A model generated the notes under the pieces. It was not told where the DNA came from. It did not search any database and saw nothing but the letters and a program-made list of their open reading frames with translations. From a virus (taxonomy: Duplodnaviria; Heunggongvirae; Uroviricota; Caudoviricetes), in the IMG/VR virus record IMGVR_UViG_2737471824_000004, positions 1 to 30,523 of that record: a stretch of 30,523 nt of DNA, one strand, 5' to 3'. The first letter of the stretch is position 1. The number at the start of each line of letters is the position of its first letter. The position numbers and the translations under genes were made by a program. This document shows, one piece after another, positions 2,233 through 26,536 of the stretch.

Positions 2233-2316
2233 ATTTTTCTCCTTAATTAAGGTTGAGTGAATCCCTGCCATTGCTGGCATATAAGAATGAAACCGTACAT
2301 TTGTGACGTAGCTGCT

Positions 2317-2508
2317 TTAAATACTTGTCGTGACTTCTTTATTATCCTGACGAATAACTTTATCAACCTGATAACAGTTACCTGGAATTTTCTGTTCTTC
2401 TGCAGCAGCCATGCATTCTTTCATGGAGTTGTATATTCCTGCAACTATATCAACCGGTTCACCGGAAACAAGAAAAACAGTCATAACAAGCGCGAATACT
2501 GTATTCAT
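2317..2508 (-). CDS. hypothetical small protein with N-terminal hydrophobic segment (63 aa; sits where YdfD lies in Qin)
   Basis: ORF-track ORF; start ATG shares one base with the upstream gene stop (TGATG); N-terminus VFALVMTVFLV is hydrophobic. Confidence 0.5.
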   Translation of the reverse strand: MNTVFALVMTVFLVSGEPVDIVAGIYNSMKECMAAAEEQKIPGNCYQVDKVIRQDNKEVTTSI

Positions 2509-2693
2509 CAGTGTCTCCAGAAAATACCAAGTCTGAGAAGAGCCATTCTGGAAAGTATGGAATTATCATTGAGAAAATAAGGCTCATATTTCCTCATATT
2601 AATGGCATCTTCAGTAAACTCACGGTTACTGATTTGAACACCAATTTCAAAACAACCTTCAGATGTATTGATGTTTGGTAATAACGTTTCCAT
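2508..2693 (-). CDS. dicB: DicB-like cell-division inhibitor (61 aa)
   Basis: METLLPNINTSEGCFEIGVQISNREFTEDAIN closely resembles my recollection of the E. coli DicB N-terminus (MKTLLPNVNTSEGCFEIGV...); C-terminus diverged. True start is ATG at 2693 with RBS GAGGAAACGATA; the track M at 2711 is TTG. Confidence 0.6.
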   Translation of the reverse strand: METLLPNINTSEGCFEIGVQISNREFTEDAINMRKYEPYFLNDNSILSRMALLRLGIFWRH

Positions 2694-2707
2694 TATCGTT
2701 TCCTCGA

Positions 2708-3262
2708 TCAATGGATATTAAGTAACTGCTCCACGGTCATATTTTTAATTACGTCCCTGTTCACAAGCGTCCATCCCTGTTTCTCCAGATAAAAGCGGAA
2801 GGTTTCCAGGGTACAGACTATTGCTCCATCAGGAACGGTTTCAGTGAATTTGATGTTGCCGTGTTCGTCGAAGTGAACAACCAGAGTACGGCCATCGCCA
2901 GGAATCATCTTGTCAGCGGACGGGGTGTTATTCTGGCGCAGCTCTGCCTCCATGCGGTCAAACTCGGCAATGTAGGCTTCTTTGAACGCGGCGGCTTTTT
3001 TGCCGGTGAACCCCATCACCAAAAAAACGAAGCCGTTTTTGGTGATCTGGTACATTGGGAGCTTGCGTCCTGTTGAGTCGGTGTATTCGCTCGACACAAA
3101 ATTGTGCTCAGTGAATTTTGCTGAACAGTCCAGATTGCGAATTTTATCCAACACTCGTTCGTGGCGTTTACCAAAGAACTCGGCGATCGCAACAGACGTA
3201 GTGACAGCGCGACCATTTTCGATGGTTACATCAGGGTGATAAATGGTAGGGGTAGTAGCCAT
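2708..3262 (-). CDS. Rha-family phage regulatory/antirepressor protein with C-terminal domain shared with the ORF6N protein at 17746..18309
   Basis: Rha motif (VAIAEFFGKRHERVLDKIRNL...YQITKNGFVFLVMGFTGKKAAAFKEAYIAEF). Start chosen at ATG 3262 with GGAGG RBS 8 nt upstream; the in-frame upstream extension to 3670 crosses a terminator and a leader whose paralogue is non-coding. Confidence 0.7.
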   Translation of the reverse strand: MATTPTIYHPDVTIENGRAVTTSVAIAEFFGKRHERVLDKIRNLDCSAKFTEHNFVSSEYTDSTGRKLPMYQITKNGFVFLVMGFTGKKAAAFKEAYIAEFDRMEAELRQNNTPSADKMIPGDGRTLVVHFDEHGNIKFTETVPDGAIVCTLETFRFYLEKQGWTLVNRDVIKNMTVEQLLNIH

Positions 3263-3428
3263 GATGGCAGCCTCCGCGATGAATTTAATTAACTCACCAC
3301 CAGAGGTGCTAATCTCATGGGTGGTGAGACGCACAGGGTTAGCACTACCGGTCATCACGGAACCCGGCCAGCCTTGCGGCTGCCCTGCACGCCTCACCAT
3401 AATGCGAATGTGGCTGTGCTTAACGCAT

Positions 3429-3451
3429 AAAAAAACCGCCTGAGCGCGGTT
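3429..3451 (-). terminator. intrinsic terminator in the Rha leader (stem AACCGC/GCGGTT plus U7 on the minus strand)
   Basis: Hairpin at 3434..3451 followed on the minus strand by a 7-T run (plus-strand A-run 3429..3435). Confidence 0.5.
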
Positions 3452-3511
3452 ATGCGCCGTGATTGACTTCGGGGTGCTAATCCCGGCACCCGTTTTATGA
3501 GGTGCAGGTGA

Positions 3512-3540
3512 ACTATAATTCCACCCGTACTGGTTTTCAA
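3512..3540 (-). promoter_or_regulatory. sigma70-like promoter of the Rha cassette (-35 TTGAAA, 17-nt spacer, -10 TATAGT on the minus strand)
   Basis: Minus-strand hexamers at 3535..3540 and 3512..3517; homologous in position and sequence to the promoter at 17469..17497. Confidence 0.4.
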
Positions 3541-3739
3541 TAGCTACATTCAACATTTTCTCTTGCCTTTCATCACCGAAGTGAACTTTATTGATGCGGT
3601 GCCTGGTGCCTCCAGGTGACGTTAACCAGTTAACAATTAACGCCGGATACAGAGAATCCACCCATAACACTGTTTTTAGTTTTAACTGTTCCGCGTGCGC
3701 TTAGCCGCATTCACCGCATCACAAAATTCACTTTAAAAA

Positions 3740-3792
3740 GGGCGGCAGAGCAGTCACGGAGTAAAACTGATACCGCCAAACGTCACCAGAAA
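3740..3792 (-). ncRNA. dicF: DicF small RNA (53 nt), followed by a T-run at 3735..3739
   Basis: Minus strand reads TTTCTGGTGACGTTTGGCGGTATCAGTTTTACTCCGTGACTGCTCTGCCGCCC then TTTTT, matching my recollection of the 53-nt E. coli DicF including its GGCGG/CCGCC terminator stem. Confidence 0.8.
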
Positions 3793-4127
3793 ATTGATAA
3801 CAGAGGGCGTTGCAGCGGGGTTGTCACTTAAGCGTATGGTCAACCTGACAACCCGGTGTCCTCAACGGGGGAAGGAATAACCCCGCCATACTTACCGCCG
3901 CGCCATTTCGCGGATTGCCACAACCGGAAGCGCACGGTCGACGAAAATTTAACGACAGGCTATCTATGAACCAGCTACCTCGCCGTGCGCTTTCGCGTTA
4001 TGGTCTGACTTTTCAGGGAAATATCCTTTCAGTAAACTGTCAGTGCCGGATGCTCACCCGTGTCCGGCGCACGTACTCCACCTCACCCGTGGAGAACTCC
4101 TTAATCACCAACCCTCAGGAGGGTGAA

Positions 4128-6053: not shown

Positions 6054-6461
6054 TTATGCTCGATGCCCTTTCCGGGCAGCGAGCCATCTTTCAATTGTGC
6101 GCTCCATTAACTCTTTTTTGTCTTTCATCTCCTGAAGCATTTGTCCCTGTTCTTCCTCTGGGAATGCTCCAAATGTCTGAAGTAGCTCTCTTTGCTTCGG
6201 ACCTATTTTCATTGTGTCAGGTACCACAATCTGTTCGTCCTCACTTGGTGGCAACATAAACCAATATGGAGGGAATCCTGTTACTTCAGAAAGTTTATCA
6301 AGATTAGCCATTGATGGGCTTGTGATGCCATGAACCCACTTTTGGACCGATTGTTGGGCAACACCTATTCTGCGGGCTAGTTCTGCTTGCTTAAGCCCTG
6401 TTTTTTCCAGCACCAGTTTTATCCGGTACGTGGTTATTTCAAGAGTGGTCATTCGCTTCAT
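6054..6461 (-). CDS. prophage repressor, DicA/RacR-like (135 aa, N-terminal XRE HTH, no S24 peptidase domain)
   Basis: HTH motif LKQAELARRIGVAQQSVQKW; size and C-terminal pattern resemble DicA as recalled; divergent from the Cro-like gene; leaderless start at the predicted pRM. Confidence 0.75.
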   Translation of the reverse strand: MKRMTTLEITTYRIKLVLEKTGLKQAELARRIGVAQQSVQKWVHGITSPSMANLDKLSEVTGFPPYWFMLPPSEDEQIVVPDTMKIGPKQRELLQTFGAFPEEEQGQMLQEMKDKKELMERTIERWLAARKGHRA

Positions 6462-13010: not shown

Positions 13011-13186
13011 TGCAGCGGGTGCTTGAGGCTATCTGTCTCAGGCATGAACACCAAAAGGCAGATAGAGAAAAGCCCCAGTTAACATTACGCGTCCGGCAAG
13101 ACGCTTAACATTAATCTGAGGCTCAATCTATGAACGGCAAATCTAGGTTAGCCTCTTACGTGCCGAAAGGCAAGGAGAAGCAGGCT

Positions 13187-13342
13187 ATGAAGCAGCAAAA
13201 GGCGATGTTAATCGCCCTGATCGTCATCTGTTTAACCGTCATAGTGACGGCACTGGTAACGAGGAAAGACCTCTGCGAGGTACGAATCCGAACCGGCCAG
13301 ACGGAGGTCGCTGTCTTCACAGCTTACGAACCTGAGGAGTAA
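13187..13342 (+). CDS. hokD: Hok/Gef-family type I toxin (51 aa; HokD/RelF-like)
   Basis: MKQQKAMLIALIVICLTVIVTALVTRKDLCEVRIRTGQTEVAVFTAYEPEE: transmembrane helix plus LCEVR...EVAVF signature; AAGGAG RBS; in-frame upstream extension from 13130 is a mok-like leader frame. Confidence 0.75.
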   Translation: MKQQKAMLIALIVICLTVIVTALVTRKDLCEVRIRTGQTEVAVFTAYEPEE

Positions 13343-13508: not shown

Positions 13509-14123
13509 ATGCAGAATTTATCTCAACAGTTGTTAGAAGCATATGACAAGGAGTGCCGCAAAGAGCTTTCGATCGCGTTAGCACAGGCTTATCTTCATTC
13601 GCATATGAAGGCAAAAGAGTTTGGTTCTTTTTGGGCTCAAGCACAGTCATATTTGCGCTGGTTTTATGCCGATGCATTGCTTGAGAATGCGGCTAAGCGT
13701 GTGGGGCTGGATTTTGAAGTCGGTAGCAATGCTGCTAAAAATTGTAAACACATTGCGATTCACTCGAACAACTGGAAAATGACGGCACATCATTTATCGG
13801 GTAATGCGCCACTTCCTAAGCAGGCATTGTATAGAGCTGTTTACGCTAATCAAAATTATGAATTGAATTTTGGGGATGAAAATGCCGACTCCCTGGATGG
13901 GAGAGCGTCTGGTGGACATGTTTATATGTTACATGATGGCAGTAATCAGCACTTGTCCAAACTGAATTTAACTGTTCCTTCTTCGGATAATTACGGGATT
14001 CTTTATACTGAGTCTTTACCAATTATGACGATGGTAGAAGTTGAAGCAGAAAATGTGGATTCTGAGATTGAAGATAAAATCAAGATTCTTACCGAACAAA
14101 TAATTAAATCACAGCAATCATGA
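13509..14123 (+). CDS. hypothetical protein (204 aa), first gene of a two-gene low-GC module
   Basis: ATG 13509 with AAGGA RBS; stop overlaps the downstream start (ATGA); two TGGTTGACA boxes upstream (13445..13452, 13477..13484). Confidence 0.55.
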   Translation: MQNLSQQLLEAYDKECRKELSIALAQAYLHSHMKAKEFGSFWAQAQSYLRWFYADALLENAAKRVGLDFEVGSNAAKNCKHIAIHSNNWKMTAHHLSGNAPLPKQALYRAVYANQNYELNFGDENADSLDGRASGGHVYMLHDGSNQHLSKLNLTVPSSDNYGILYTESLPIMTMVEVEAENVDSEIEDKIKILTEQIIKSQQS

Positions 14124-15265
14124 GCATGAATATCGCACAAACACCATTTACTGATAAATCGTTTAATCCTCGTCGCCTTGAGGAGGCAAGAGAGGCAAAA
14201 GGGTTGACGATGGCTGAACTTGCCAGAGTGCTCAATATTTCAAGACAAGCTATTTCGTCATTTGAGAAGGGGTTGAAGTCTCCCTCTGCTGATACACTTT
14301 CTGCAATAGCCAAGGTGTTAGGATTTCCAGAACGATTTTTCTTAGCCTCCAGTGCTTCTCCATCTCTGGAGGGGGCGATTCATTTTAGAAGTCGTTCAAC
14401 TGCGACCAAAAAGGCTCGAGTTACAGGGAAAACACGTGGGCGTTGGGCGGCATTAATATTGGATGAATGTCTAAAATATGCTCAATTACCAGATGTGGTT
14501 CTGCCTGAATTCGATATTATTGATTTTGAGGTTCTGTCTCTATCTGATATTGAGGATATGTCCACCCAATTAAGGCGTTTTTGGGGGTTAGGTGATGGTC
14601 CAATACTCAATTTAACTAGACTTGTTGAAAATAAAGGAATCGTGGTTTCTCATTTACCTTCTGGTGAGAAAGTTGATGCCTTTTCGTTCTGGCATAATGG
14701 GCGGCCTTTAATTATGTTAGATAGCTCGAAGACGGCTGTTCGCATGCGATTTAGTCTTGCTCATGAACTTGGCCATTTAATTATGCATAGGGCAGTGGAG
14801 GATGACTACCTGAATGATAAAGAATTATTCGACCTGGTGGAGTTGCAGGCCGATTATTTTGCCTCCAGCTTTTTAATGCCAGCCACGACTTTCGGGCGTG
14901 AATTTTATAGTCCAAATTTATCAGCGTTAGAACGATTAAAACTACGTTGGATTACATCTATCGGTAGTATTGCCATGAGGAGTCATAGCCTTAAGTTAAT
15001 CAGCGATAATCAGAAAAGCTATATATTTAAGCAATTAGCGCCATTCCATCGTAGGGAGCCGTTAGATGATGCAATCCCAAAAGAAGAGCCTGAGTTACTT
15101 AATAAGTTACTTTTACTTCTTGATAAGCATTCAATCATAAAGGTAACTGAGTTAACTGATATCTTTGCTCTTCCCTTAAATGAGTTATCTGCAATTACAC
15201 GATTTAAAGAATCAGATATGATTCATTCTGACAATGTTATTTCATTTACCATAAAACAAAAATAA
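14120..15265 (+). CDS. XRE-family HTH fused to ImmA/IrrE-type zinc metallopeptidase (COG2856-like), 381 aa with C-terminal extension
   Basis: HTH LTMAELARVLNISRQAISSFEKG; HEXXH motif LAHELGHLIMH. Confidence 0.75.
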   Translation: MSMNIAQTPFTDKSFNPRRLEEAREAKGLTMAELARVLNISRQAISSFEKGLKSPSADTLSAIAKVLGFPERFFLASSASPSLEGAIHFRSRSTATKKARVTGKTRGRWAALILDECLKYAQLPDVVLPEFDIIDFEVLSLSDIEDMSTQLRRFWGLGDGPILNLTRLVENKGIVVSHLPSGEKVDAFSFWHNGRPLIMLDSSKTAVRMRFSLAHELGHLIMHRAVEDDYLNDKELFDLVELQADYFASSFLMPATTFGREFYSPNLSALERLKLRWITSIGSIAMRSHSLKLISDNQKSYIFKQLAPFHRREPLDDAIPKEEPELLNKLLLLLDKHSIIKVTELTDIFALPLNELSAITRFKESDMIHSDNVISFTIKQK

Positions 15266-15300: not shown

Positions 15301-15371
15301 TACGTATTCTGGTTTACAATCCACAGGCCAGCCTGAACAACTGGCACCTGCTGCGCCAGCAGAGACAACCG

Positions 15372-15650
15372 ATGGCGCACGATACCAAATTATACAATTC
15401 TGATGATTCTGCCGTCTTTGCCAGCAGGCGCGGACGGTGTTTTCACGCATTCAAATCTGACTGGTACCAGCATCCCCCATGCACTGAAGAACAGGCCGAG
15501 TGGCTAATTCAGTGCTACCGCAGACACGGATACGAGATTAAGAAAGCCCTCAGCCTCGATTATCGTCACTGGATAATCTCCGTCAGGCTTCCTTACTCTG
15601 AACGCCCACCGCGTCCGTCCCGCACATTCCAGCAACGCATCTGGAGGTAA
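15372..15650 (+). CDS. hypothetical protein (92 aa), just upstream of the DUF968 gene
   Basis: ORF-track ORF; weak RBS. Confidence 0.35.
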   Translation: MAHDTKLYNSDDSAVFASRRGRCFHAFKSDWYQHPPCTEEQAEWLIQCYRRHGYEIKKALSLDYRHWIISVRLPYSERPPRPSRTFQQRIWR

Positions 15651-15651
15651 C

Positions 15652-16710
15652 GTGCGGGTATTACTTCGACCTGTTCTGGTACCGGAACTCGGGCTGGTGA
15701 TCGTTAAGCCGGGCCGTGAATCCATGCCGGTATTCCACAATACCCGGGTATTGGTGGAGCCGGAACCGAAAAGCATGCGTAATCTGCCGTCCGGGGTCGT
15801 TCCTGCCGTTCGCCAGCCGCTGGTGGAAGACAAAACATTGCTGCCGTTTTTCAGTAACGCACGGGTGATTCGTGCTGCTGGTGGTGCTGGTGCATTGTCT
15901 GACTGGCTGTTGCGCCATATTAAATCCTGCCAGTGGCCACACGGCGATTATCATCACAGCGAAACCGTCATTCACCGTTATGGTACCGGCGCAATGGTGT
16001 TGTGCTGGCACTGCGACAACCAGCTGCGTGACCAGACATCCGAATCACTCGAGCAACTTGCTCATCAAAACCTGTCAGCATGGATGATTGACGTCATCGG
16101 TCACGCAATAAGCGGTACGCAGGAGCGTGAATTATCTCTGGCTGAATTATCTTGGTGGGCGGTCCGCAATCAGGTGGCGGACGCGCTACCGGAAGCGGTA
16201 TTACGTCGTTCGCTGGGGTTGCGTGCGGAAAAAATCCGCTCAATGTACCGTGAAAGCGACATCGTACCGGGAGAGCAGACCGCCACCAGCATACTGAAAC
16301 AGCGCACAAAAAATCTTGCGCCGCTGCCTCACGCCCACCAGCAACAGAACCCGCCACAGGAAAAGACGGTGGTCAGCATTGCTGTTGATCCGGAGTCACC
16401 GGCTCAGTATCTCCAGCGCCAGAAACCACAACGGGAAGAGATGCCTGTATACACGCGCTGGGTAAAAACGCAGAAATGCATGACGTGCGGTAATCAGGCA
16501 GATGATCCGCATCACATCATTGGTCATGGACTGGGAGGGATGGGAACAAAGGCTGATGATTTGTTCGTTATTCCGCTGTGCCGTAAATGCCATAACGAAC
16601 TACACGCCGGGGTAAAAGATTTTGAAGAAAAACACGGCAGCCAGCTGTTGTTGCTGATTCGTTTTTTAATGCACGCGAAAAATTCGGGCGTCCTGAAGTG
16701 GAAATCATAA
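15652..16710 (+). CDS. DUF968-family prophage protein (YdfU-like, 352 aa) with C-terminal Cys/His-rich HNH-like motif
   Basis: GTG start after GGAGG; C-terminal CMTCG...HHIIGH...CRKCHNELH; position before rusA and Q matches Qin ydfU. Confidence 0.6.
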   Translation: MRVLLRPVLVPELGLVIVKPGRESMPVFHNTRVLVEPEPKSMRNLPSGVVPAVRQPLVEDKTLLPFFSNARVIRAAGGAGALSDWLLRHIKSCQWPHGDYHHSETVIHRYGTGAMVLCWHCDNQLRDQTSESLEQLAHQNLSAWMIDVIGHAISGTQERELSLAELSWWAVRNQVADALPEAVLRRSLGLRAEKIRSMYRESDIVPGEQTATSILKQRTKNLAPLPHAHQQQNPPQEKTVVSIAVDPESPAQYLQRQKPQREEMPVYTRWVKTQKCMTCGNQADDPHHIIGHGLGGMGTKADDLFVIPLCRKCHNELHAGVKDFEEKHGSQLLLLIRFLMHAKNSGVLKWKS

Positions 16711-17088
16711 ATGACTGAACGCATAGAATTTGTTTTGCCTTACCCGCCGACGGTGAATACTTACTGGCGACGTCGCGGCAGCACATATTTTGTATCAAAA
16801 GCCGGTGAGCGTTATCGCCGAGATGTGGCGCTTATTGTTCGCCATCAGCAACTGAAATTAAACCTCTCCGGAAGGCTGGCGATAAAGATTATTGCAGAGC
16901 CACCGGATAAGCGCCGTCGTGACCTGGACAATATCCTGAAAGCACCGCTGGATGCACTAACGCATGCGGGACTGCTTATCGATGACGAGCAGTTTGATGA
17001 AATCAATATTGTGCGCGGACTGCCTGTTCCTGGTGGGCGGTTGGGCGTGAAGATTTACGAAATTACAGGTGATAACGATGGTGCGTGA
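16711..17088 (+). CDS. rusA: RusA Holliday-junction resolvase (125 aa)
   Basis: [15 protein letters not shown]...[27 protein letters not shown] matches RusA hallmarks. Confidence 0.8.
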
Positions 17089-17464
17089 TATTCAGCAGGT
17101 TATGGAGCGGTGGGGAGCATGGGCTGCGAACAATCACGAAGATGTGTCATGGGCGTCAATCGCTGCTGGTTTTAAAGGATTAATCCCGCCGAAAGTGAAA
17201 TCACGCCCTCAGTGTTCTGATGATGATGCAATGATAATTTGTGGCTGTATGGCCCGGTTGAACAAGAAAAATCAGGATTTGCACGATTTGTTGGTGGATT
17301 ATTACGTAGGTGGAATGACTTTTATGGGGTTGGCACGAAAGCATGGGTGTTCGGATACCTGTATTGGCAAGCGCCTGCAGAAAGCGGAAGGGGTTATTGA
17401 TGGCATGTTGATGATGCTTGATATCCGACTGGAGATGGACAGATACGTAGAACGAATCATGTAG
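17078..17464 (+). CDS. late antiterminator Q (Q21/QuuD-like, 128 aa)
   Basis: [23 protein letters not shown]...[10 protein letters not shown]... resembles DLP12 QuuD as recalled; ATG 17078 with AGGTGA RBS; overlaps the rusA end. Confidence 0.75.
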
Positions 17465-17468
17465 GAGC

Positions 17469-17497
17469 TTGACCAGACACATTGTCCGGGGCTATAT
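17469..17497 (+). promoter_or_regulatory. pR'-like promoter directly after Q (-35 TTGACC, 17-nt spacer, -10 CTATAT/TATATT)
   Basis: Hexamers at 17469..17474 and 17492..17499; homologous to the promoter at 3512..3540. Confidence 0.4.
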
Positions 17498-17560
17498 TCC
17501 TCACGCGTCAGCAAAATCTGGCGTCGGGATTAGGAACCCCGGATAGAGACCGCGACAGAT

Positions 17561-17583
17561 ACACGCCGCGAGCGTGTTTTTTA
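17561..17583 (+). terminator. tR'-like intrinsic terminator (ACACGC-CGCGA-GCGTGT plus T6)
   Basis: Direct reading; about 70 nt downstream of the pR'-like promoter. Confidence 0.5.
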
Positions 17584-17745
17584 TTGTCGTATGCACGCGC
17601 ACATCTGAATTATGGTGGGGCGTATGGGGGAGCTGAAAGGCTCGCCGGTTGGTTTCCCGGTAGTTCCTAACCCTGTACGTCTCACCACCCGATGATTAGG
17701 AACCTGACGGTGGTGATAGTTTAGAAACCACTAGAGGGCGTCATT

Positions 17746-18309
17746 ATGACAACTCAAATCTCTGTTGAAACTCTCTCCCCGATCACCCATAACCAGATTC
17801 CTGTTATTACCACTGAACTTTTGGCGCAGCTTTATGGCACCGAAATTCTGAATATCCAGGTTAACTTCACCAGAAACAAAGAGCGTTTTGTCGCAGGAAA
17901 GCACTTTTTTAAAGCAGCGGGTGAGGAATTAAAAAAATTGCGACTTACTTTAAGTAAGTCACAAAATCCCATCTCTCCCAAAACCCGCTTCCTCATCCTA
18001 TGGACAGAACGCGGAGCTGCCCGCCACGCAAAAATGCTGGAAACAGATCAGGCGTGGGAAGTATTCGAAAAACTGGAAGACTGTTATTTCAGCCAGAAAC
18101 AGCCACCAGCAACACAAAACTCCCCCACCGAAAATGATGGATGCGCATTACTGATCCACTTCGATAAACACGGTCAGGTCGACTTCACGGAAAAAGTACC
18201 CGCCGATGCGATGGTATGCACTCTGGAACGGTTCAAATTTTATCTGGAACAACGCGGCTGGATCGTTGCCAGTAAAGAGCAACTGGTGGAACGACTGATG
18301 CGACTTTAA
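17746..18309 (+). CDS. ORF6N/KilA-N-type antirepressor-like protein with the same C-terminal domain as the Rha protein (187 aa)
   Basis: N-terminal ITTELLAQLYGTE...NKERFVAGKHFF...LWTERGAARHAKML resembles the ORF6N domain; C-terminus LLIHFDKHGQVDFTEKVPADAMVCTLERFKFYLEQRGW parallels the Rha C-terminus; RBS GAGGG. Confidence 0.65.
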   Translation: MTTQISVETLSPITHNQIPVITTELLAQLYGTEILNIQVNFTRNKERFVAGKHFFKAAGEELKKLRLTLSKSQNPISPKTRFLILWTERGAARHAKMLETDQAWEVFEKLEDCYFSQKQPPATQNSPTENDGCALLIHFDKHGQVDFTEKVPADAMVCTLERFKFYLEQRGWIVASKEQLVERLMRL

Positions 18310-18385
18310 AAATTTTCCCCGAACACTTTACGATCGTAAAAAGTTGAATATCCTGTTAAGAGTGGTTACTACGCCACACAGCTTA

Positions 18386-18410
18386 AACCCGCCGATGAGC
18401 GGGTTTTTTT
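18386..18410 (+). terminator. intrinsic terminator (AACCCGC-CGATGA-GCGGGTT plus T7)
   Basis: Direct reading. Confidence 0.6.
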
Positions 18411-18533
18411 GTGCCTGAAAAGCAGTACAGGACGTTAAATGCGCTGGTGGTTGCGAATACCGGCCTTTCAACTTGCTGGCTTTTTCGACAAGAGTTATTG
18501 GTATGTCACGTTAACCAGAAAAGGGAAAAAGAC

Positions 18534-18731
18534 ATGCTAAAACAGCAGGATATGAGCGAAACCGCCAGAGTGGTGTTTAATGAATTAAGCGTCACCGAAC
18601 CAGCGACCGTCGGGGAGATTGCGCAGAATACTTACCTTTCACGCGAATGCTGCCAGTTAATACTGACCCAGCTTGTTATGGCGGGCCTGGCAGATTATCA
18701 GTTCGGTTGTTACAGACGCCTTCCGCAGTGA
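18534..18731 (+). CDS. hypothetical small protein (65 aa)
   Basis: In-frame ATG at 18534 with purine-rich RBS; the track start at 18411 is GTG and overlaps the terminator. Confidence 0.4.
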   Translation: MLKQQDMSETARVVFNELSVTEPATVGEIAQNTYLSRECCQLILTQLVMAGLADYQFGCYRRLPQ

Positions 18732-18881
18732 AGGCTTTTTAATTTGTGGTAATGGGCGGCTGGTGGGTGTTAGCGGCACCTGCCAGCCATCTGCTCATGC
18801 GTTGGGGTCACAAGCAAACCTCAGGCCCATCTGCTTTGCGCAAAAGCGGTATGAGCCTATCAGAGAAGCGCTTATTGATCT

Positions 18882-19943
18882 ATGGCTAATACTGTAAAAA
18901 TATCCAGTTGTGAGTTAATCAACGCTGATTGCCTGGAATTTATCCAGACCTTACCGGAAAACTCTGTCGATCTGATAGTCACAGACCCACCATACTTTAA
19001 AGTGAAGCCAGATGGCTGGGATAACCAGTGGAAGGGCGATGATGATTACCTGAAATGGCTGGATCAGTGTCTGGCGCAGTTCTGGCGGGTGTTAAAACCT
19101 GCCGGAAGCCTTTACCTGTTCTGCGGTCATCGTCTGGCATCTGATATCGAAATCATGATGCGTGAACGCTTTAATGTGCTGAACCACATTATCTGGGCGA
19201 AGCCGTCCGGACGTTGGAATGGGTGTAATAAAGAAAGTCTGCGCGCATATTTTCCTGCCACAGAGCGCGTTCTGTTTGCTGAACATTACCAGGGGCCATA
19301 TCGCGGCAAAAGTGACGGCTATGCAGCAAAAGAAAGGAAACTCAAACAGCACATAATGGCACCGCTGATATCGTATTTCAGGGATGCTCGTGCCGAACTG
19401 GGTATAACGGCAAAACAAATTGCCGAAGCCACAGGTAAGAAAAATATGGTTTCCCACTGGTTTGGTGCCAGTCAGTGGCAGTTGCCGAATGAGGCTGACT
19501 ACCGGAAGTTACAGGCACTGTTTTCCCGTATAGCGGCAGAGAAGTTTCAGGAACAACAACTGGAACAACCACACCACCAGTTGGTGGCATCTTATGATTC
19601 ACTGAATCGCAAATATTCTGAATTGCTGGATGAGTTTAAATCTCTCCGGCGCTGGTTCTCCGTATCAGTCTCCGTGCCTTATACCGATGTCTGGATGCAT
19701 AAACCCGTTCAGTTCTACCCGGGCAAACATCCGTGTGAGAAACCGGCGGATATGCTCAGGCAAATAATCAATGCCAGTAGTCGACCTGGCGATCTGGTTG
19801 CTGATTTCTTTATGGGATCCGGTTCCACAATAAAAGCAGCAATGGCGCTGGGGCGTCGGGCATTAGGTGTTGAGCTTGAGACAGAACGGTTCAATAAGAC
19901 CATTCAGGAAATCAGTATGTTATCAGCAAATACAATTTTGTGA
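18882..19943 (+). CDS. DNA methyltransferase, N6-adenine/N4-cytosine family (beta class; 353 aa)
   Basis: Motif IV DPPY (IVTDPPYF) before motif I FxGSGS (FFMGSGSTIKAA); no adjacent restriction gene. Confidence 0.8.
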   Translation: MANTVKISSCELINADCLEFIQTLPENSVDLIVTDPPYFKVKPDGWDNQWKGDDDYLKWLDQCLAQFWRVLKPAGSLYLFCGHRLASDIEIMMRERFNVLNHIIWAKPSGRWNGCNKESLRAYFPATERVLFAEHYQGPYRGKSDGYAAKERKLKQHIMAPLISYFRDARAELGITAKQIAEATGKKNMVSHWFGASQWQLPNEADYRKLQALFSRIAAEKFQEQQLEQPHHQLVASYDSLNRKYSELLDEFKSLRRWFSVSVSVPYTDVWMHKPVQFYPGKHPCEKPADMLRQIINASSRPGDLVADFFMGSGSTIKAAMALGRRALGVELETERFNKTIQEISMLSANTIL

Positions 19944-20184
19944 ATTAACTCAATTATTAGTGGGACATCTGTTACGTATAATCCGTAACAACACGGTGCA
20001 TCCTGCAATGTAGCAGGGCTGATGTGGTATGATGTAATAAGGATTTTCATCATTTTCATGAGCATCAAAAGTTAAAGGGAGCGAGCCACGGTTGACCACG
20101 CCAAAGGCTCATCGGTAAAAATCCGACACCGTGTCTTCTTAACTCACTTATTGTTTCCACCCATGTTTTTGGATACCTGCTGTA

Positions 20185-20221
20185 GCTGTCAGATTAGCGC
20201 GATAATCTGACAGCTTTTTTT
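20185..20221 (+). terminator. strong intrinsic terminator (12-bp stem GCTGTCAGATTA/TAATCTGACAGC plus T7)
   Basis: Direct reading. Confidence 0.6.
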
Positions 20222-20513
20222 ACAACGAATCCTTCTGATCTGCTTTTGCGGGGCTTTTTTGTATCCGCTCCATGCCCGGCGTATAAGCGGAGGTTGGTCA
20301 GTTTTCTAAAAATTGAAATACCTCACAATTCAGCCAGTTAATGGTTGTTTGTCTGGCGAAGAGTTTGTAAATAAAAAAACGCATGGTGAATCCCCCTAAG
20401 CGGCGGGGCGAATCAGCAGTCAGTTCTGGGATAATCGCGGGTTTGTATGCTGATGCCGGACTCACCGGGAGGCACCCGGCACCATGCATCATGGTCATCC
20501 CCTTGTATGATAC

Positions 20514-20568
20514 CCCTCTCCGGAGGGGTATTTTTTGGATAAAAAAGCCCGCGCTGGGAGGCACGGGC
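20514..20568. terminator. back-to-back terminator-like hairpins (plus: CCCCTC-TCCG-GAGGGG plus T6 at 20514..20537; minus: hairpin 20547..20568 with T6 on the minus strand)
   Basis: Direct reading. Confidence 0.4.
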
Positions 20569-20969
20569 GGCAAGGAATAAAACGTGAAGAAATTTTCACA
20601 GGCGCATAATAATCCGATGTTGCCAGATTTTGCAACTGCAGCATCTGGTTATTATGTGAGCTGGAAAATCAGATTCTGTATGGACTGAAGCCATGCTGTT
20701 ATTTAGGGCCAAAGAGCTGGCTTTTTCCCGCCTTCTCTCCAGTAACGATTAATGAGAAAAGAATGAAATGCTTTTCCTGGGGAGGAGGGCAGTAGAAAAA
20801 AGAACCCGCCAGCAAAAATATGGGGGATGAACAGCTTTTGCTACTCAGGTTGCTGGCGGGTATGGTTCTTCATGAAATAAGAATGTTACGCTGTATTTTT
20901 AATGAAAATGATAATCATTGTCAATTGGTTGTGCGTATTTTTTCATACATGACTGGTAAAGGTGATTCA

Positions 20970-21000
20970 GGCCATCAGAGTTTTGCTGATGGCCTTTTTT
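20970..21000 (+). terminator. intrinsic terminator immediately upstream of the holin (GGCCATCAG-AGTTTTG-CTGATGGCC plus T6)
   Basis: Direct reading. Confidence 0.55.
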
Positions 21001-21033
21001 CTTTCCGGTAGCACAGGTCTGTCGGGGCGGGAT

Positions 21034-21249
21034 ATGTATCAGATGGAAAAAATATCAACAGGCATTGCCTACGGCGCCTCCGCAGGCAGTGCTGGCTACT
21101 GGTTTTTACAATGGCTTGATCAGGTTAGTCCGTCTCAGTGGGCTGCGATTGGTGTGCTGGGGAGCCTGTTCCTGGGTTTTCTGACTTATCTGACGAATCT
21201 GTACTTCAAGATAAAAGAGGACCGTCGCAAGGCGGCGCGGGGAGAGTAA
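21034..21249 (+). CDS. class II pinholin, S21-like (71 aa) with dual-start motif MYQM
   Basis: [38 protein letters not shown]...[13 protein letters not shown] matches phage 21 S as recalled; ATGs at 21034 and 21043. Confidence 0.8.
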
Positions 21250-21253
21250 TTCA

Positions 21254-21805
21254 ATGATTAAAAGCTATGAGTTGATTGTGAAAGGAACCCGCAATTTTGA
21301 GAATAAAGTCTCGGTAATTGTAGCCTTACAGGATAAAGAACGTTTTGCCGGTGAAATTGTTGATCTGAATATCAGCATGGATCGTGTTGAAGGGGCAACG
21401 CTGGAGTTTTACGAGACAGAGGCAATCAAACAGGCAAAGATATTGTTCCGGGATATTGCTGCCGGGTTATGTGAAGGGAACGAACCGTTGCCGGGAAAGC
21501 GCCCCATAATTTTAGAGGCGCAGAATGTGTGGATAACCTACAGAGGAAAACTACCGGGAAGAATTACTGGTTCTCTGAAGACGCCACCTACGGCATTGTG
21601 GTCAGAAAAAGATGATATTGAATCGCTCATTGAAAAACTGGAGGGCAGCGTCGCTGATCTGAATAAAAAATTGTCGGTGCTGATTCCTTCTGAAGATGAA
21701 AAAAAACACCGCGATGAGCAGTTTGCGGCGTTTTACGATTATTGCATTGAAGTTACTCGCAGGAATTTTGTGAAGATTTTTGAGGAGGGTAAATCTCTTC
21801 AGTAA
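21254..21805 (+). CDS. hypothetical protein (183 aa) inserted between holin and endolysin; low GC
   Basis: ATG 21254 preceded by GGAGAG inside the holin 3' end; no recognisable family. Confidence 0.55.
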   Translation: MIKSYELIVKGTRNFENKVSVIVALQDKERFAGEIVDLNISMDRVEGATLEFYETEAIKQAKILFRDIAAGLCEGNEPLPGKRPIILEAQNVWITYRGKLPGRITGSLKTPPTALWSEKDDIESLIEKLEGSVADLNKKLSVLIPSEDEKKHRDEQFAAFYDYCIEVTRRNFVKIFEEGKSLQ

Positions 21806-22013
21806 GCTTAATGGCGGACGCTGCAATTAATTCAGGAAGGTCCACAAGGTCATCTGTCAGTGAATATGATGAAAAATCGGCGGCAGTTCTGTTAAGAAGC
21901 GCTTTAACTAATTCCTTTTCCTTCTCTGGCAACAAGTTGATTAGAGCTACGACTGCTTGCCTGAGTGCGATTAAATCAGCAAAAGTTTGTTTTGGTAGAT
22001 TTGTGTAATCCAT
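21753..22013 (-). CDS. hypothetical protein (86 aa), convergent with and overlapping 21254..21805
   Basis: ATG 22013 (MDYTNLPKQTF...) with GAGGTG RBS; 3' ends of the two genes overlap by about 53 nt. Confidence 0.45.
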   Translation of the reverse strand: MDYTNLPKQTFADLIALRQAVVALINLLPEKEKELVKALLNRTAADFSSYSLTDDLVDLPELIAASAIKLTEEIYPPQKSSQNSCE

Positions 22014-22126
22014 AGTCACCTCTGTGTTTATCAGATTGACATCCTCCTCCCGCCAGTGCCCATCACTGGCGAGGTAAGATTTAACATATCCGGGGATTTG
22101 AAGCCGATAAATCCTGATAAATACCC

Positions 22127-22660
22127 ATGAACGTAAAAATCAGATACAGCCTGTCGGCTGCTGTTCTGGCACTGATTGCCGCCAGTGCTCCTGCCCCTGA
22201 CATTCTCGATCAGTTTCTGGATGAAAAAGAGGGGAATCACACCACTGCATACCTCGATGGCTCCGGCATCTGGACCATCTGTCGGGGTGCCACGATGGTG
22301 GATGGAAAACCCGTTTTTCCCGGTATGAAACTGTCGAAGGAAAAATGCGACCAGGTTAACGCCATTGAACGTGATAAGGCGCTGGCATGGGTGGAACGTA
22401 ATATTAAAGTACCACTGACCGAACCCCAGAAAGCGGGTATCGCGTCATTTTGCCCCTATAACATTGGCCCCGGTAAGTGTTTCCCGTCAACGTTTTATAA
22501 GCGGCTTAATGCAGGTGATCGTAAAGGTGCCTGCGAGGCGATTCGCTGGTGGATTAAGGACAGGGGGCACGATTGCCGCATTCGTTCAAATAACTGTTAT
22601 GGTCAGGTTATTCGTCGTGACCAGGAAAGCGCATTAGCCTGTTGGGGGATAGAGCAGTGA
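22127..22660 (+). CDS. SAR endolysin (R21-type lysozyme, 177 aa)
   Basis: N-terminal signal-arrest-release segment ([16 protein letters not shown]) and E...D...T triad region [20 protein letters not shown]. Confidence 0.85.
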
Positions 22661-23121
22661 GAAGAGTAATCGCGATTATTTATGCTCTGGTTATCTGCAT
22701 CATCGTCTGCCTGTCATGGGCTGTTAATCATTACCGTGATAATGCCATTACCTATAAAGCCCAGCGCGATAAAAATGCCAGAGAACTGAAGCTGGCAAAC
22801 TCGACAATTACTGATATGCAGGTGCGCCAGCGTGATGTTGCTGTGCTCGATGCAAAATACACGAAGGAGTTAGCTGATGCGAAAGCTGAAAATGATGCTC
22901 TGCGTGATGATGTTGCCGCTGGTCGTCGTCGGTTGCGCATCAAAGCAGTCTGTCAGTCAGTGCGTGAAGCCACCACCGCCTCCGGCATGGATAATGCAGT
23001 CTCCCCCAGACTGGCAGACGTCGCTGAACGGGATTATTTTACCCTCAGAGAACGAGTGATGGTGATGCAGAAACAACTGGAAGGAGCGCAAGAATATATC
23101 CGTACTCAATGTCTGAAATAA
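22657..23121 (+). CDS. Rz i-spanin (154 aa)
   Basis: GTG 22657 overlapping the endolysin stop; N-terminal TM then coiled-coil ([18 protein letters not shown]...). Confidence 0.75.
22877..23059 (+). CDS. Rz1 o-spanin lipoprotein embedded in +1 frame within Rz (60 aa)
   Basis: AAGGAG RBS 7 nt upstream; lipobox LPLVVVGC; proline-rich. Confidence 0.7.
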
Positions 23122-23270
23122 GTTCCCGGATACGCTGTATCGACGCTGTGTTTCCGTATTAACAGAAATAGTTGACTGATGTAGTTGACTTCATGTTCGT
23201 TGGTACGGAAATAATCGAAACGATGCACATCGGATTTTACAGTGTACAAGGTGTGAGGATTTATTTCCCG

Positions 23271-23510
23271 TCATTGTCCATTAGTACGATGGTAAAAGTA
23301 ACCTGACCGGGTATTTAGTTCTTCAGTATTCCGTTGTGCTGTCTTTATTCTCTTCTCTGTTGACAGTCTTCGGCGACAGGCTTCAATGACCCATGCAGAA
23401 AAATTTCCTGATCCTTTTTCTTCAAGAGCAATATGTATCTGCTCGATCATTCGGTTTGGAAAGCGGATGTTACGGGTAGTTGTTCTGCTGGTTTTATTTT
23501 TTGATGACAT
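23271..23510 (-). CDS. hypothetical protein, possibly ribbon-helix-helix DNA-binding (79 aa)
   Basis: RNIRFPNRMIEQIHIALEE...NFSAWVIEACRRRL resembles a CopG/Arc-type strand-helix-helix; weak RBS. Confidence 0.4.
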   Translation of the reverse strand: MSSKNKTSRTTTRNIRFPNRMIEQIHIALEEKGSGNFSAWVIEACRRRLSTEKRIKTAQRNTEELNTRSGYFYHRTNGQ

Positions 23511-23699
23511 GATGTTGTCCCGTGTTCAGTGTTGCTGATTTGTATTGTCTGAAGTTGTTTTTACGTTAAGTTGATGCGGATCAATTAATGCGACACCTGC
23601 GCCAAAATTGATTATTTGCCGTGGTTTCATGGTGTACATAGAAGTTGTGATGGTCTTTATGAACATGATAATTATTATCATTTGAGTGGGTCCTTTCCG

Positions 23700-23890
23700 G
23701 TGATCCGGCAGGCTACGGGGCGGCGACCTCGCGCGTTTTCACTATTTATGAAAATTTTTCGGGAAAAGCAGATCCGTTCTTCTTCTTTTTAACTAATTGA
23801 TTATCAATAGAATATTAAAAATATAAAAGGATCTGACAAAGGCTGTTTTTGTCCGAAAACGCCATTTTCAGATCCTTTCTGGTTTCCGGA
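23700..23890. other. lambda-like cos site (cosN cohesive-end sequence GGGCGGCGACCT at 23718..23729; cosB toward Nu1)
   Basis: ACGGGGCGGCGACCTCGCGCGTTTTCACTATTTATGAAAATTTT matches the lambda cos region as recalled, immediately upstream of Nu1. Confidence 0.65.
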
Positions 23891-23897
23891 TGAGTGT

Positions 23898-24446
23898 ATG
23901 AACGTCAATAAGAAAAAACTGGCCGATATTTTTGGCGTTGATGTCAGGACCATCACCGCCTGGCAGAGTCAGGGGTTACCACTAGTTTCTGGTGGAGGGA
24001 AAGGGACTGAATCAGTTTTTGATACAACTGCTGCCATTCAGTGGTATGCGCAGAGGGAAGCTGATATCGAAAATGAAAAGCTCCGGAAAGAGCTGGAAGA
24101 TTTGCGGGCGGCTGCAGAATCAGACTTACAACCGGGCACCATTGACTATGAGCGCTACCGGCTCACAAAAGCGCAGGCAGATGCGCAGGAACTGAAAAAT
24201 GCCCGTGAAGAAGGAATGGTTCTGGAAACTGAATTGTTTACCTTCATTCTGCAACGTGTGGCACAGGAAATTTCGGGGATACTTGTGCGTGTGCCATTGA
24301 CGTTACAGCGTAAATATCCAGACATTTCACCATCACATCTTGATGTGGTGAAAACTGAAATCGCGAAAGCCTCCAATGTTGCAGCTAAAGCCGGTAAAAA
24401 CGTGGGCGGGTGGATCGATGATTTCAGACGCACAGAAGGCAGCTAA
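23898..24446 (+). CDS. terminase small subunit Nu1 (182 aa)
   Basis: [23 protein letters not shown]...GGGKG closely resembles lambda gpNu1. Confidence 0.8.
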
Positions 24447-26346
24447 TGCAGCCGGTGCGATAGCTACAGGGCTTTTATCTCTCAATATTCCGGTTCCACT
24501 GACAACAGTTCAGTGGGCTGATCAACATTATTATCTGCCGAAAGAATCTTCATATACTCCCGGAAAATGGGAAACACTGCCGTTTCAGGTTGCCATTATG
24601 AACAGCATGGGAAATGACCGGATCCGCACCATTAATCTGATTAAATCGGCGCGCGTCGGTTATACCAAAATGCTGTTAGGGGTGGAGGCCTATTTTATTG
24701 AGCATAAATCCCGTAACAGTCTGCTTTTTCAGCCAACAGATTCTGCCGCCGAGGATTTCATGAAATCTCATGTCGAGCCAACAATAAGGGATGTTCCTGC
24801 ATTGTTGGATCTGGCTCCATGGTTCGGAAGAAAACACCGCGATAATACGCTCACCCTGAAGCGTTTTTCCTCCGGCGTGGGGCTCTGGTGTCTGGGGGGC
24901 GCGGCAGCAAAAAATTACCGTGAAAAATCTGTGGATGTGGTCTGTTATGACGAACTCTCCTCGTTTGAACCGGATGTGGAAAAAGAAGGTTCGCCAACAC
25001 TGCTTGGCGATAAACGTATTGAAGGTTCGGTATGGCCTAAATCCATACGCGGCTCGACGCCCAAAACCAAAGGCACCTGCCAGATCGAAAAAGCCGCTAA
25101 CGAGTCGGCGCATTTCATGCGGTTTTATGTTCCTTGTCCTCATTGTGGGGAGATCCAGTATCTGAAGTTTGGTGATGAATCCACGCCGTTTGGCCTGAAA
25201 TGGGAGAAGGGTAAACCGGAAACGGTGTATTACCTGTGTGAGCATAATGGCTGTGTGATCCGTCAGTCGGAACTTGACCAGACTGACGGGCGCTGGATTT
25301 GTGACAATACAGGAATGTGGACACGTGACGGCCTGGCATTTTACAGCGCGGGTGATGAGGAGATGCCGCCACCGCGATCCATCACTTTCCACATCTGGAC
25401 GGCCTATAGCCCGTTTACCACCTGGGTACAGATTGTCTATGACTGGCTGGATGCACTGAAAGATCCCAACGGCCTGAAAACCTTTGTGAACACCACGCTG
25501 GGCGAGACCTGGGAAGAGGCCGTGGGCGAAAAACTCGATCACCAGGTTCTGATGGATAAGGTCGTGCATTACACGGCGGCGGTACCTGACAGGGTGGTTT
25601 ATCTGACGGCGGGCATTGACTCGCAGCGAAACCGTTTTGAGATGTATGTCTGGGGATGGGCTCCGGGAGAGGAAGCCTTTCTGGTGGATAAAATCATCAT
25701 TATGGGGCGTCCTGATGAGGAAGAGACGCTGTTACGTGTGGATGCGGCGATCAACAAAAAATACCGCCATGCGGATGGCACCGAAATGACCATTTCCCGT
25801 GTCTGCTGGGACATAGGGGGGATCGATGGTGAAATTGTTTATCAGAGATCAAAAAAACACGGTGTTTTCCGGGTGCTGCCGGTAAAAGGCGCATCTGTCT
25901 ATGGCAAGCCGGTGATCACCATGCCAAAAACCCGCAATCAGCGGGGCGTGTATCTGTGTGAAGTGGGGACGGACACCGCAAAAGAAATTCTCTATGCCCG
26001 TATGAAAGCCGATCCCACGCCTGCGGATGAAGCCACGTCGTATGCCATCCGTTTTCCTGATGATCCGGAGATTTTTTCGCAGACAGAGGCGCAGCAACTG
26101 GTTGCGGAAGAGCTTGTGGAGAAGTGGGAAAAAGGAAAGATGCGTCTGCTGTGGGATAACAAAAAGCGGCGTAACGAAGCGCTGGACTGCCTGGTGTATG
26201 CCTACGCGGCATTACGTGTGTCCGTGCAGCGCTGGCAGCTCGATCTGGCTGTACTGGCAAAATCCCGGGAAGAAGAGACGACCCGGCCAACCCTTAAAGA
26301 ACTGGCAGCGAAGCTGTCCGGAGGAGTGAATGGTTACAGTCGCTGA
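24418..26346 (+). CDS. terminase large subunit A (642 aa)
   Basis: Extensive similarity to lambda gpA ([12 protein letters not shown]..., [33 protein letters not shown]); start overlaps the Nu1 end. Confidence 0.9.
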
Positions 26347-26536
26347 ATTGCAGGCGCTGCGTCAGGCGCGCCTTGATTTATTAACCGGTAAACGGGTGGT
26401 GTCTGTCCAGAAAGATGGTCGCAGAATTGAATATACGGCGGCTTCTCTGGATGAGCTTAACCGGGCGATCAATGATGCGGAGTCGGTACTGGGGACAACC
26501 CGACGTCGCCGTCGTCCGCTGGGAGTGAGGTTATGA
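26330..26536 (+). CDS. head-tail joining protein W (68 aa)
   Basis: LTGKRVVSVQKDGRRIEYTAASL resembles lambda gpW; GGAGG RBS. Confidence 0.75.
   Translation: MVTVAELQALRQARLDLLTGKRVVSVQKDGRRIEYTAASLDELNRAINDAESVLGTTRRRRRPLGVRL

Follow-up and report, generated by a model that had tools for sequence, protein, structure and literature searches.

The window analysed here, the whole 30,523-nucleotide (nt) stretch of the IMG/VR virus record IMGVR_UViG_2737471824_000004, is a lambdoid, Qin/Gifsy-like prophage with two diverged, antisense-RNA-gated regulator modules. Cassette 1 lies on the minus strand, in the dicBF region, and encodes a protein with an Rha-type head; cassette 2 lies on the plus strand, directly after the antiterminator gene Q, and encodes a protein with an ORF6N-type head. 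Both proteins end in the same rare C-terminal tail, and both genes follow a leader that contains an isrK and a C4 RNA. The new element is the tail, which is not catalogued under any family name; the shuffling of heads and tails is already known.

Results

Two proteins with unlike heads and a common tail

According to the sequence-only reading of this DNA, two antirepressor paralogues share a C-terminal segment and differ in their N-terminal DNA-binding domains. Both open reading frames (ORFs) are found where that reading had put them (184 amino acids (aa) on the minus strand and 187 aa on the plus strand), the peptides it quoted are present, and the common segment is confirmed: in a single BLASTP comparison, residues 101–183 of the Rha protein align with residues 107–187 of the ORF6N protein, 34 of 85 positions being identical (40%, E=2e-21), and in the tail core of 58–63 aa the identity is 50%. 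Nucleotide differences in the gap-free 50-codon tail core number 15, 12, and 32 at codon positions 1, 2, and 3, respectively, and conserved residues are encoded by differing codons in 13 of 26 cases; thus, the likeness of the tails is one of proteins, and an old one.

The head of the Rha protein (residues 21–105) belongs to the Pfam family Phage_pRha (PF09669; 107.5 bits against a cutoff of 29.9) and also matches TIGR02681 (107.6 bits, cutoff 45.95), the sole addition from NCBIfam; PHROG names the Rha family “transcriptional regulator.” The head of the ORF6N protein (residues 12–97) belongs to ORF6N (PF10543; 71.7 bits, cutoff 27.8). A comparison of the two head profiles, built from shallow alignments, yielded no significant match (hhalign E=0.054, probability 1%); in PHROG families 373 and 63, the matches of the two heads fall on one stretch. 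In addition, the ORF6N head (window 17746–18075, plus strand) has weak matches, with E-values from 2e-7 to 8e-4, to the PADLOC candidate defence family PDC-S05, and for the Rha protein PADLOC reported no defence system.

The AlphaFold (AF2) model of the Rha protein has a mean predicted local distance difference test (pLDDT) of 83 and a predicted template modelling score (pTM) of 0.56. Its head, residues 13–82, follows the order beta-beta-alpha-alpha-alpha-beta-beta-alpha and is winged-helix-like; it is followed by a long helix (residues 88–111), by a weakly modelled linker (block pLDDT 62), and by the tail, which stands apart and consists of one beta-hairpin, one helix, and two short helices. 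Modelled alone, the tail has the same elements (pLDDT 83, pTM 0.50). In a fold search of the full-length model against PDB, all matches had E-values of 0.15 or more and were weak ones, to PadR-like winged-helix and LAGLIDADG proteins; hence, DNA binding by the head is not confirmed. The statement that the two proteins carry unlike DNA-binding domains is therefore borne out as to the different Pfam families, and its DNA-binding part is a matter of family annotation.

These observations bear on one alternative, in which the proteins, rather than being antirepressors, are transcription factors that bind specific DNA sequences and activate or repress phage or host promoters, as some Bro-network members do, with the tail as a dimerisation domain. 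We consider this rather doubtful: the fold search has no significant DNA-binding match to set beside the winged-helix-like topology of the model, and we identified neither an operator nor a repeated binding site in the window, even though DNA binding is ascribed to the families of both heads and the PHROG label of the Rha family points the same way. Moreover, in the paradigm for a C4-controlled gene, the P1 immI locus c4-icd-ant1/2, the product is a protein that binds the repressor (PMC8198154).

Rarity of the tail and its reassortment with heads

Neither tail has a Pfam match at E≤1, and the tail has no NCBIfam match and no sequence match in PDB. In particular, the Pfam comparison with the known antirepressor C-terminal domains (ANT/KilAC PF03374, P22_AR_C, ORF6C, ORF11CD3) gave no match. 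The structural check proposed earlier for the common segment likewise found no PDB or fold match, the segment modelled alone being a beta-hairpin plus helices. The segment could have turned out to be a common generic domain; it is instead rare and has no family name.

The tail profile, run exhaustively over 1.84 billion cluster representatives, yielded 25 matches, about 12 of which are credible, single-stretch ones. In these proteins the tail is joined to heads of several kinds, namely Phage_pRha (P0152, P0164), ORF6N (P0156), and AntA (P0150); it also occurs as a stand-alone ORF of 68 aa and at the N-terminus of one protein of 171 aa. According to the named sources and the species-representative genomes, its hosts are Escherichia/Shigella, Salmonella, and Citrobacter, and on these sequence data the tail appears to be confined to prophages of these genera. 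A tail-only search of a 5.8-billion-protein index returned 28 short fragments and gave no census of domain architectures.

Heads and tails have also been exchanged between the two types present in the window. In P0006 an Rha head is joined to a tail of the cassette 2 type, and in P0020 an ORF6N head to a tail of the cassette 1 type (both are database fragments), with the recombination junction at the linker. Conversely, the same heads occur with quite different tails, as in the Ant protein of phage CP-1639, which has another C-terminus, and in several PHROG families.

A pairing code in the RNA leaders

The claim of homologous leaders is upheld, since isrK and C4 RNAs precede each gene and all four score above the Rfam gathering scores (50 bits for isrK, RF01394; 45 bits for C4, RF01695). 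The parts follow one order in each leader: a promoter, isrK with sites a1 and b1 and a terminator, C4 with sites a2 and b2, the target sites a' and b', and the gene. Promoter sites were taken from a consensus scan, terminators from a terminator scan, and C4 shapes from a minimum free energy fold; b2 occupies the loop of hairpin 2 of C4, and a2 the single-stranded stretch after this hairpin. The triple sites a1–a2–a' and b1–b2–b' were located in both cassettes. In cassette 1, b' overlaps the GGAGG Shine–Dalgarno sequence, which lies 8 nt before the ATG.

In order to compare the leaders, we used 80 related IMG/VR loci, obtained with the tail as bait, together with an E. coli prophage, Gifsy-1, and phage CP-1639; counts of a/b alleles and duplex energies are based on 37 distinct leaders. 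Seven a2 and 14 b2 alleles occur in them, in 19 combinations, and in every case a1/a' and b1/b' vary in step with a2/b2. Pairing energies were calculated for site-restricted duplexes (a2–a', b2–b') and not for whole molecules, because whole-molecule folding of C4 with its target unfolds C4 and is hence uninformative. The mean energy of the a2–a' duplex is −8.6 kcal/mol for cognate and −2.3 kcal/mol for non-cognate pairs, and that of the b2–b' duplex −14.7 and −7.3 kcal/mol, respectively. The cognate a2–a' and b2–b' duplexes of the window have −8.7 and −16.5 kcal/mol in cassette 1, and −9.8 and −8.1 kcal/mol in cassette 2, whereas cross pairs between the two cassettes have −0.7 to −6.0 kcal/mol and are mutually non-cognate.

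This concerted variation of sites is the strongest evidence for the leaders, and it indicates, at the level of sequence, that they work by pairing of C4 with its target. As the a/b site sequences differ between the cassettes, each C4 should govern only its own gene, with no cross-regulation; the comparison indicates that the two copies would be insulated from each other, similar to the P1/P7 heteroimmunity at c4.

A conserved GGUGGUGA follows a' in all leaders (window 3288–3295, minus strand, and 17709–17716, plus strand). It is complementary to UCACCACC, the 3' strand of the outer stem of C4, so that an alternative pairing would compete with C4 folding. Alternative structures have been reported for the leader of Gifsy-1, and this pairing is probably their counterpart.

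A reading frame through the leader of cassette 1

Most databases annotate the Rha protein as 282–284 aa and include in it the Pfam domain Phage_ASH; P0029 is 100% identical to the 282-aa long form. This form bears Phage_ASH (PF10554, 66.5 bits) in addition to Phage_pRha, the Phage_ASH part being the translated isrK/C4 region (window 3263–3556), and it could be translated only from a transcript starting upstream. Over 82 loci in which the frame around the Rha ATG was followed, it is open for at least 100 codons upstream in 77. Despite the many a'/b' alleles and a 3-nt indel, 81 of the 82 also keep an ATGGTG in this frame, 138 or 141 nt from the Rha ATG and at the 5' end of C4; its AUG is the equivalent of an upstream-ORF start codon in cassette 2. 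Since the frame is kept so consistently, the comparison suggests either that N-terminally extended isoforms are real, as with Ant1/Ant2 of P1 and Eta of P4, or that an RNA gene underlies a protein family.

Origin and location of the cassettes

Cassette 1 lies between the DicF small RNA (3740–3791, minus strand; Rfam) and dicB (2508–2711), and thus within the DicA-repressed early-left (dicBF) operon. It is missing from the prophage of E. coli R1 (L001), which served as comparison genome in blastn searches and is otherwise collinear here: window 2247–2719 corresponds to L001 6966–7437, and window 3582–4013 to L001 7430–7856. By these breakpoints cassette 1 behaves like a moron-like, cleanly bounded insertion in the dicBF operon.

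The two copies stand 15 kb apart in one element and have the leader type and the tail in common, and one could ascribe the common tail to a recent duplication, or to gene conversion, between two loci inside the prophage. We deem this highly improbable. DNA identity between the cassettes is 80% in C4, 57% in isrK, and 63% in the tail core, and at 40% it is at noise level in the heads; half of the conserved residues are recoded, and the specificity sites of the RNAs are unlike. Furthermore, each copy has near-identical relatives (100% identity for the cassette 1 protein, 99.1% for cassette 2 DNA) in genomes without the other copy, e.g., L001 has cassette 2 only. A recent duplication was rejected on the divergence figures. 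To judge from these comparisons, the cassettes are old relatives, two diverged members of one known type of module. The proposal of one mobile cassette present twice with swapped heads is therefore sound as regards the common leader type and the reassortment of heads and tails (P0006, P0020, P0150), and fails in that the cassette was not duplicated within the element.

Relation to known systems

The nearest studied relative is Gifsy-1, in which transcription from the isrK promoter gives an isrK-orf45-anrP mRNA that is not translated until the short IsrK RNA opens it in trans (PMC4825925). Its product AnrP raises the transcripts of the antQ operon and induces Gifsy-1 (Hershko-Shalev et al., 2016, PMC4825925). 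Cassette 2 is arranged as in Gifsy-1, directly after Q, with a promoter, a terminated isrK, a C4-like leader (STnc1160 in Gifsy-1), and paired AUGs of an upstream ORF (uORF). Its DNA is 77% identical to the antQ-isrK-anrP region of Gifsy-1 and also matches the ant regions of Stx phages, and a full-length comparison of its ORF6N protein with AnrP (STM2616) gives 57% identity. The tail of AnrP is a divergent member of the tail family (hhalign probability 76.8%, E=2.1e-5). The uORF of cassette 2 is the counterpart of orf45, both AUGs being kept 12 nt apart (ATGGTGGGGCGTATG); it has 27 codons, whereas orf45 has 45, and the pairing alleles differ, being UUAGGAAC/GAAACCA in cassette 2 and UUGGCGU/AUCACCGG in Gifsy-1. 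Cassette 1 departs further from Gifsy-1, as it has an Rha head and sits in the dicBF early operon and not after Q.

Citron and Schuster reportedly described the c4 of the P1/P7 immI in 1990, and P1 and P7 are said to be heteroimmune at c4. Both cassettes share with immI a C4 RNA of the same family, co-oriented upstream of an antirepressor-type gene, and two short C4 sequences whose complements lie at the ribosome-binding site and in the upstream a1/b1. The a/b allele differences of the cassettes resemble those of P1 and P7, and the two in-frame starts of cassette 1 recall Ant1/Ant2. Unlike P1, the modules of the window have no icd homologue, their proteins have an Rha or ORF6N head and another tail, and they reside as two orthogonal copies in one lambdoid prophage with a DicA-type repressor (C1 in P1).

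In the satellite phage P4 (eta/CI RNA/seqA), the frame of a Bro-network gene encloses both the immunity RNA and the target upstream of this RNA, and Phage_ASH is the translation of the RNA region (PMC10111431). Similarly, the frame of cassette 1 stays open through isrK and C4. In contrast to P4 CI, which acts mainly on transcription termination and has another gene product, the overlap of b' with the Shine–Dalgarno sequence in cassette 1 suggests translational control.

The “Bro network” is reportedly due to Iyer, Koonin, and Aravind in 2002, and in it Rha, ORF6N, AntA, Bro-N, and KilA-N heads are said to be shuffled with varied C-termini. A study of 2023 counts ORF6N, Phage_pRha, AntA, and Phage_ASH among the members of the network and points out that immunity RNAs beside such genes are detected with the C4 and isrK models of Rfam (PMC10111431); a catalogue of 2010 already contained the motifs c4 and c4-a1b1 (PMC2864571). 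The proteins of the window fit this picture, their tail being joined to heads of several network families and C4/isrK RNAs adjoining the genes, and they differ in that neither Pfam nor NCBIfam has a model for the tail. As the shuffling and the link with C4/isrK are already published, our finding is an instance of a known pattern.

Finally, Rem is the proven antirepressor of the Qin DicA, and it is a small protein unrelated to Rha and ORF6N (PMC10448788). Rem–DicA of Qin and GfoA–GfoR of Gifsy resemble the present case in that induction depends on an antirepressor, the repressor being short and non-cleavable (PMC10448788; Lemire et al., 2011, PMC3121763). Rem and GfoA are both small, single-domain, and unrelated to the Rha/ORF6N proteins.

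Discussion

Need for an induction factor

The repressor of the window, with 135 aa and a helix-turn-helix (HTH) domain only, is of the Gifsy/DicA-like type, which is controlled by antirepressors and not by RecA cleavage (PMC10448788). A tblastn search of the whole window with Rem from L001 gave nothing at E≤1e-3, and a search for LexA boxes found none near either cassette (15 matches in the window against 9.2 expected, which is close to chance). Since the repressor is HTH-only and the window has neither a Rem homologue nor a LexA box near the cassettes, some other induction factor is needed, and the Rha and ORF6N proteins are obvious candidates.

Proposed mechanism

In the explanation that we favour, a constitutive-looking promoter would start each leader, and the C4 RNA would be cut from it, as in the homologues. 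C4 would then pair with a'/b', block ribosome binding, and keep the protein off; IsrK, which bears the target's own sites, would compete for C4 or refold the leader and so turn translation on, and, owing to the differing a/b sites, each C4 would control its own gene only. This RNA gate is very probable, given the membership of the RNAs in their families and the covariation of sites, with processing and the direction of control taken over by analogy from P1 and Gifsy-1.

The proteins under this gate would be two-part Bro-network members, built of an exchangeable winged-helix-like head, a long helix, a flexible linker, and the rare tail of about 60 residues. To judge by their homologue AnrP, such proteins would push the prophage towards lytic or early gene expression; that they derepress or activate early or late prophage transcription as AnrP does has, in our view, about an even chance. 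The least supported step gives the tail the role of a common oligomerisation or partner-docking module and the head that of target specificity; the size of the tail, its independence of the head, and the lack of any other signal in it make this a tentative suggestion. As a whole (RNA-gated modules, Bro-network proteins, an AnrP-like output, and a docking tail), the explanation seems to us probable on balance. One might go further and see in the tail a dedicated docking or oligomerisation module that defines RNA-gated induction factors of the AnrP type, the two orthogonal copies, with unlike heads and unlike C4 a/b sites and placed in dicBF and after Q, acting together as a switch with two inputs on a DicA-type repressor that is not cleavable, in a prophage without Rem or GfoA; we regard this as quite improbable.

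Several observations weigh against the favoured explanation. In Gifsy-1, IsrK is an activator acting via mRNA structure, and repression by the C4-like STnc1160 could not be demonstrated; for AnrP, the authors speak of activated transcription and show neither a defined protein target nor contact with a repressor (PMC4825925). As applied to the Rha and ORF6N proteins, “antirepressor” is an annotation label backed by analogy with one studied homologue, AnrP. In cassette 2, b' stops 3 nt before the GAGG Shine–Dalgarno sequence and the uORF stops about 50 nt upstream of the ORF6N gene, so the coupling of uORF and gene may differ from that in Gifsy-1. The DNA-binding fold of the head, whose model has as its best PDB matches weak PadR-like winged-helix ones (E≥0.15), is not confirmed.

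A further point of this kind comes from L001. The window and L001 share 94% identical DNA from 15355 to 27357, cassette 2 included, and their repressors (window 6054–6461, minus strand; L001 8782–9189) are 30% identical. The immunity region has been exchanged independently of the cassette in the Q region, and the presence of a 99% identical cassette 2 beside a 30% identical repressor argues against a specificity tuned to the resident repressor.

The same comparison bears on a different role for the tail, in which it would be the repressor-binding part, so that both proteins would antirepress the resident DicA-like repressor (6054..6461) and the heads would add secondary activities. Such a role would suit a short repressor without a cleavage domain in a window without a Rem/GfoA-type antirepressor, but a cassette 2 that is 99.1% identical in DNA next to a 30% identical repressor does not agree with it. 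The same rare tail is kept by two unlike-headed proteins under purifying selection; however, tail subtypes reassort freely with heads, and many proteins with the same heads and leaders, e.g., CP-1639 Ant, lack the tail. AnrP, with a divergent tail (hhalign E=2.1e-5), does induce Gifsy-1, yet contact with a repressor has been shown for none of the family members. Binding of the tail to the DicA-like repressor is, on these comparisons, unlikely and somewhat disfavoured, and we retain RNA-gated modules with a docking tail as the preferred explanation.

Coordinates and other features of the window

Coordinates of the cassettes and of the repressor gene are given in Table 1.

Table 1. Features of the two cassettes and the repressor gene, in window coordinates.
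Feature	Position	Strand	Evidence and remarks
Cassette 1, extent	2720..3581	minus	862-bp block; blastn breakpoints against L001
Promoter-like TTGAAA-17-TATAGT, directly upstream of isrK	3512..3540	minus	Consensus scan 10/12; position conserved in related loci; putative function
isrK copy 1	3429..3505	minus	Rfam RF01394, 68.7 bits
isrK copy 1, sites	a1 3474-3480 (UUAGCAC); b1 3457-3464; intrinsic terminator 3434-3451 + T run	minus
C4 copy 1	3317..3404	minus	Rfam RF01695, 81.0 bits
C4 copy 1, b2 (loop of hairpin 2)	3352-3362	minus	UUCCGUGAUGA
C4 copy 1, a2 (single-stranded stretch)	3339-3345	minus	GUGCUAA
Further in-frame start ATGGTG, 5' end of C4	3398-3400	minus
C4 target sites, Rha mRNA leader	3272..3312	minus	a' 3306-3312 (UUAGCAC); b' 3272-3282 (UCAUCGCGGAG)
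Rha long form	2708..3556	minus	282 aa, as in most databases; start ATG 3556; first 98 codons are the promoter/isrK/C4 translation
Rha-type gene, short form	2708..3262 (including stop)	minus	184 aa
Rha-type gene, parts	head 2948-3202, then linker; tail 2711-2899	minus	Head: Pfam Phage_pRha
DicA-like HTH repressor	6054..6461	minus	135 aa; Pfam HTH_3; PHROG repressor families
Antiterminator Q gene, directly upstream of cassette 2	17069..17464	plus	Pfam Phage_antitermQ, 176 bits
Promoter-like TTGACC-18-TATATT, directly upstream of isrK	17469..17498	plus	Consensus scan 10/12; putative function
isrK copy 2	17505..17582	plus	Rfam RF01394, 66.9 bits
isrK copy 2, sites	a1 17530-17537 (UUAGGAAC); b1 17546-17552; terminator 17561-17577 + T run	plus
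C4 copy 2	17608..17692	plus	Rfam RF01695, 65.7 bits
C4 copy 2, sites	b2 17650-17656 (UGGUUUC); a2 17663-17670 (GUUCCUAA)	plus
uORF, within C4	17612..17695	plus	27 codons; ATGGTGGGGCGTATG...; stop TGA 17693-17695; putative, read from sequence
C4 target sites, ORF6N mRNA leader	17696..17730	plus	a' 17696-17703 (UUAGGAAC); b' 17724-17730 (GAAACCA)
ORF6N-type gene, Gifsy-1 AnrP homologue	17746..18309	plus	187 aa
ORF6N-type gene, parts	head 17779-18036; tail 18133-18306	plus	Head: Pfam ORF6N
Intrinsic-terminator-like hairpin + T run, closing cassette 2	18385..18406	plus

Apart from these, an adjacent gene pair at 13509–15265 (plus strand) matches the anti-phage defence system Rosmer: an RmrT-like protein of 204 aa (E=7.5e-10) and RmrA of 381 aa, with HTH and Peptidase_M78 domains (E=5.5e-102). 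In the E. coli R1 prophage, the antirepressor gene rem occupies this stretch, between hok and a DUF968 gene. According to Rfam, the sok antitoxin RNA (13017–13192, plus strand) adjoins the hok ORF (13130–13342), and STnc100 RNA is located at 20352–20540 (plus strand).

Significance

The practical gain is modest, namely one unnamed tail domain added to the catalogue. If the module works as proposed here, the prophage would hold two induction-type regulators under two private antisense RNA codes. This is relevant to the ways in which co-resident prophages escape or make use of cross-talk in E. coli, Shigella, and Salmonella, where such prophages carry toxins and cell-division inhibitors, and the a/b alleles of related prophages constitute a natural library of apparently orthogonal antisense switches.

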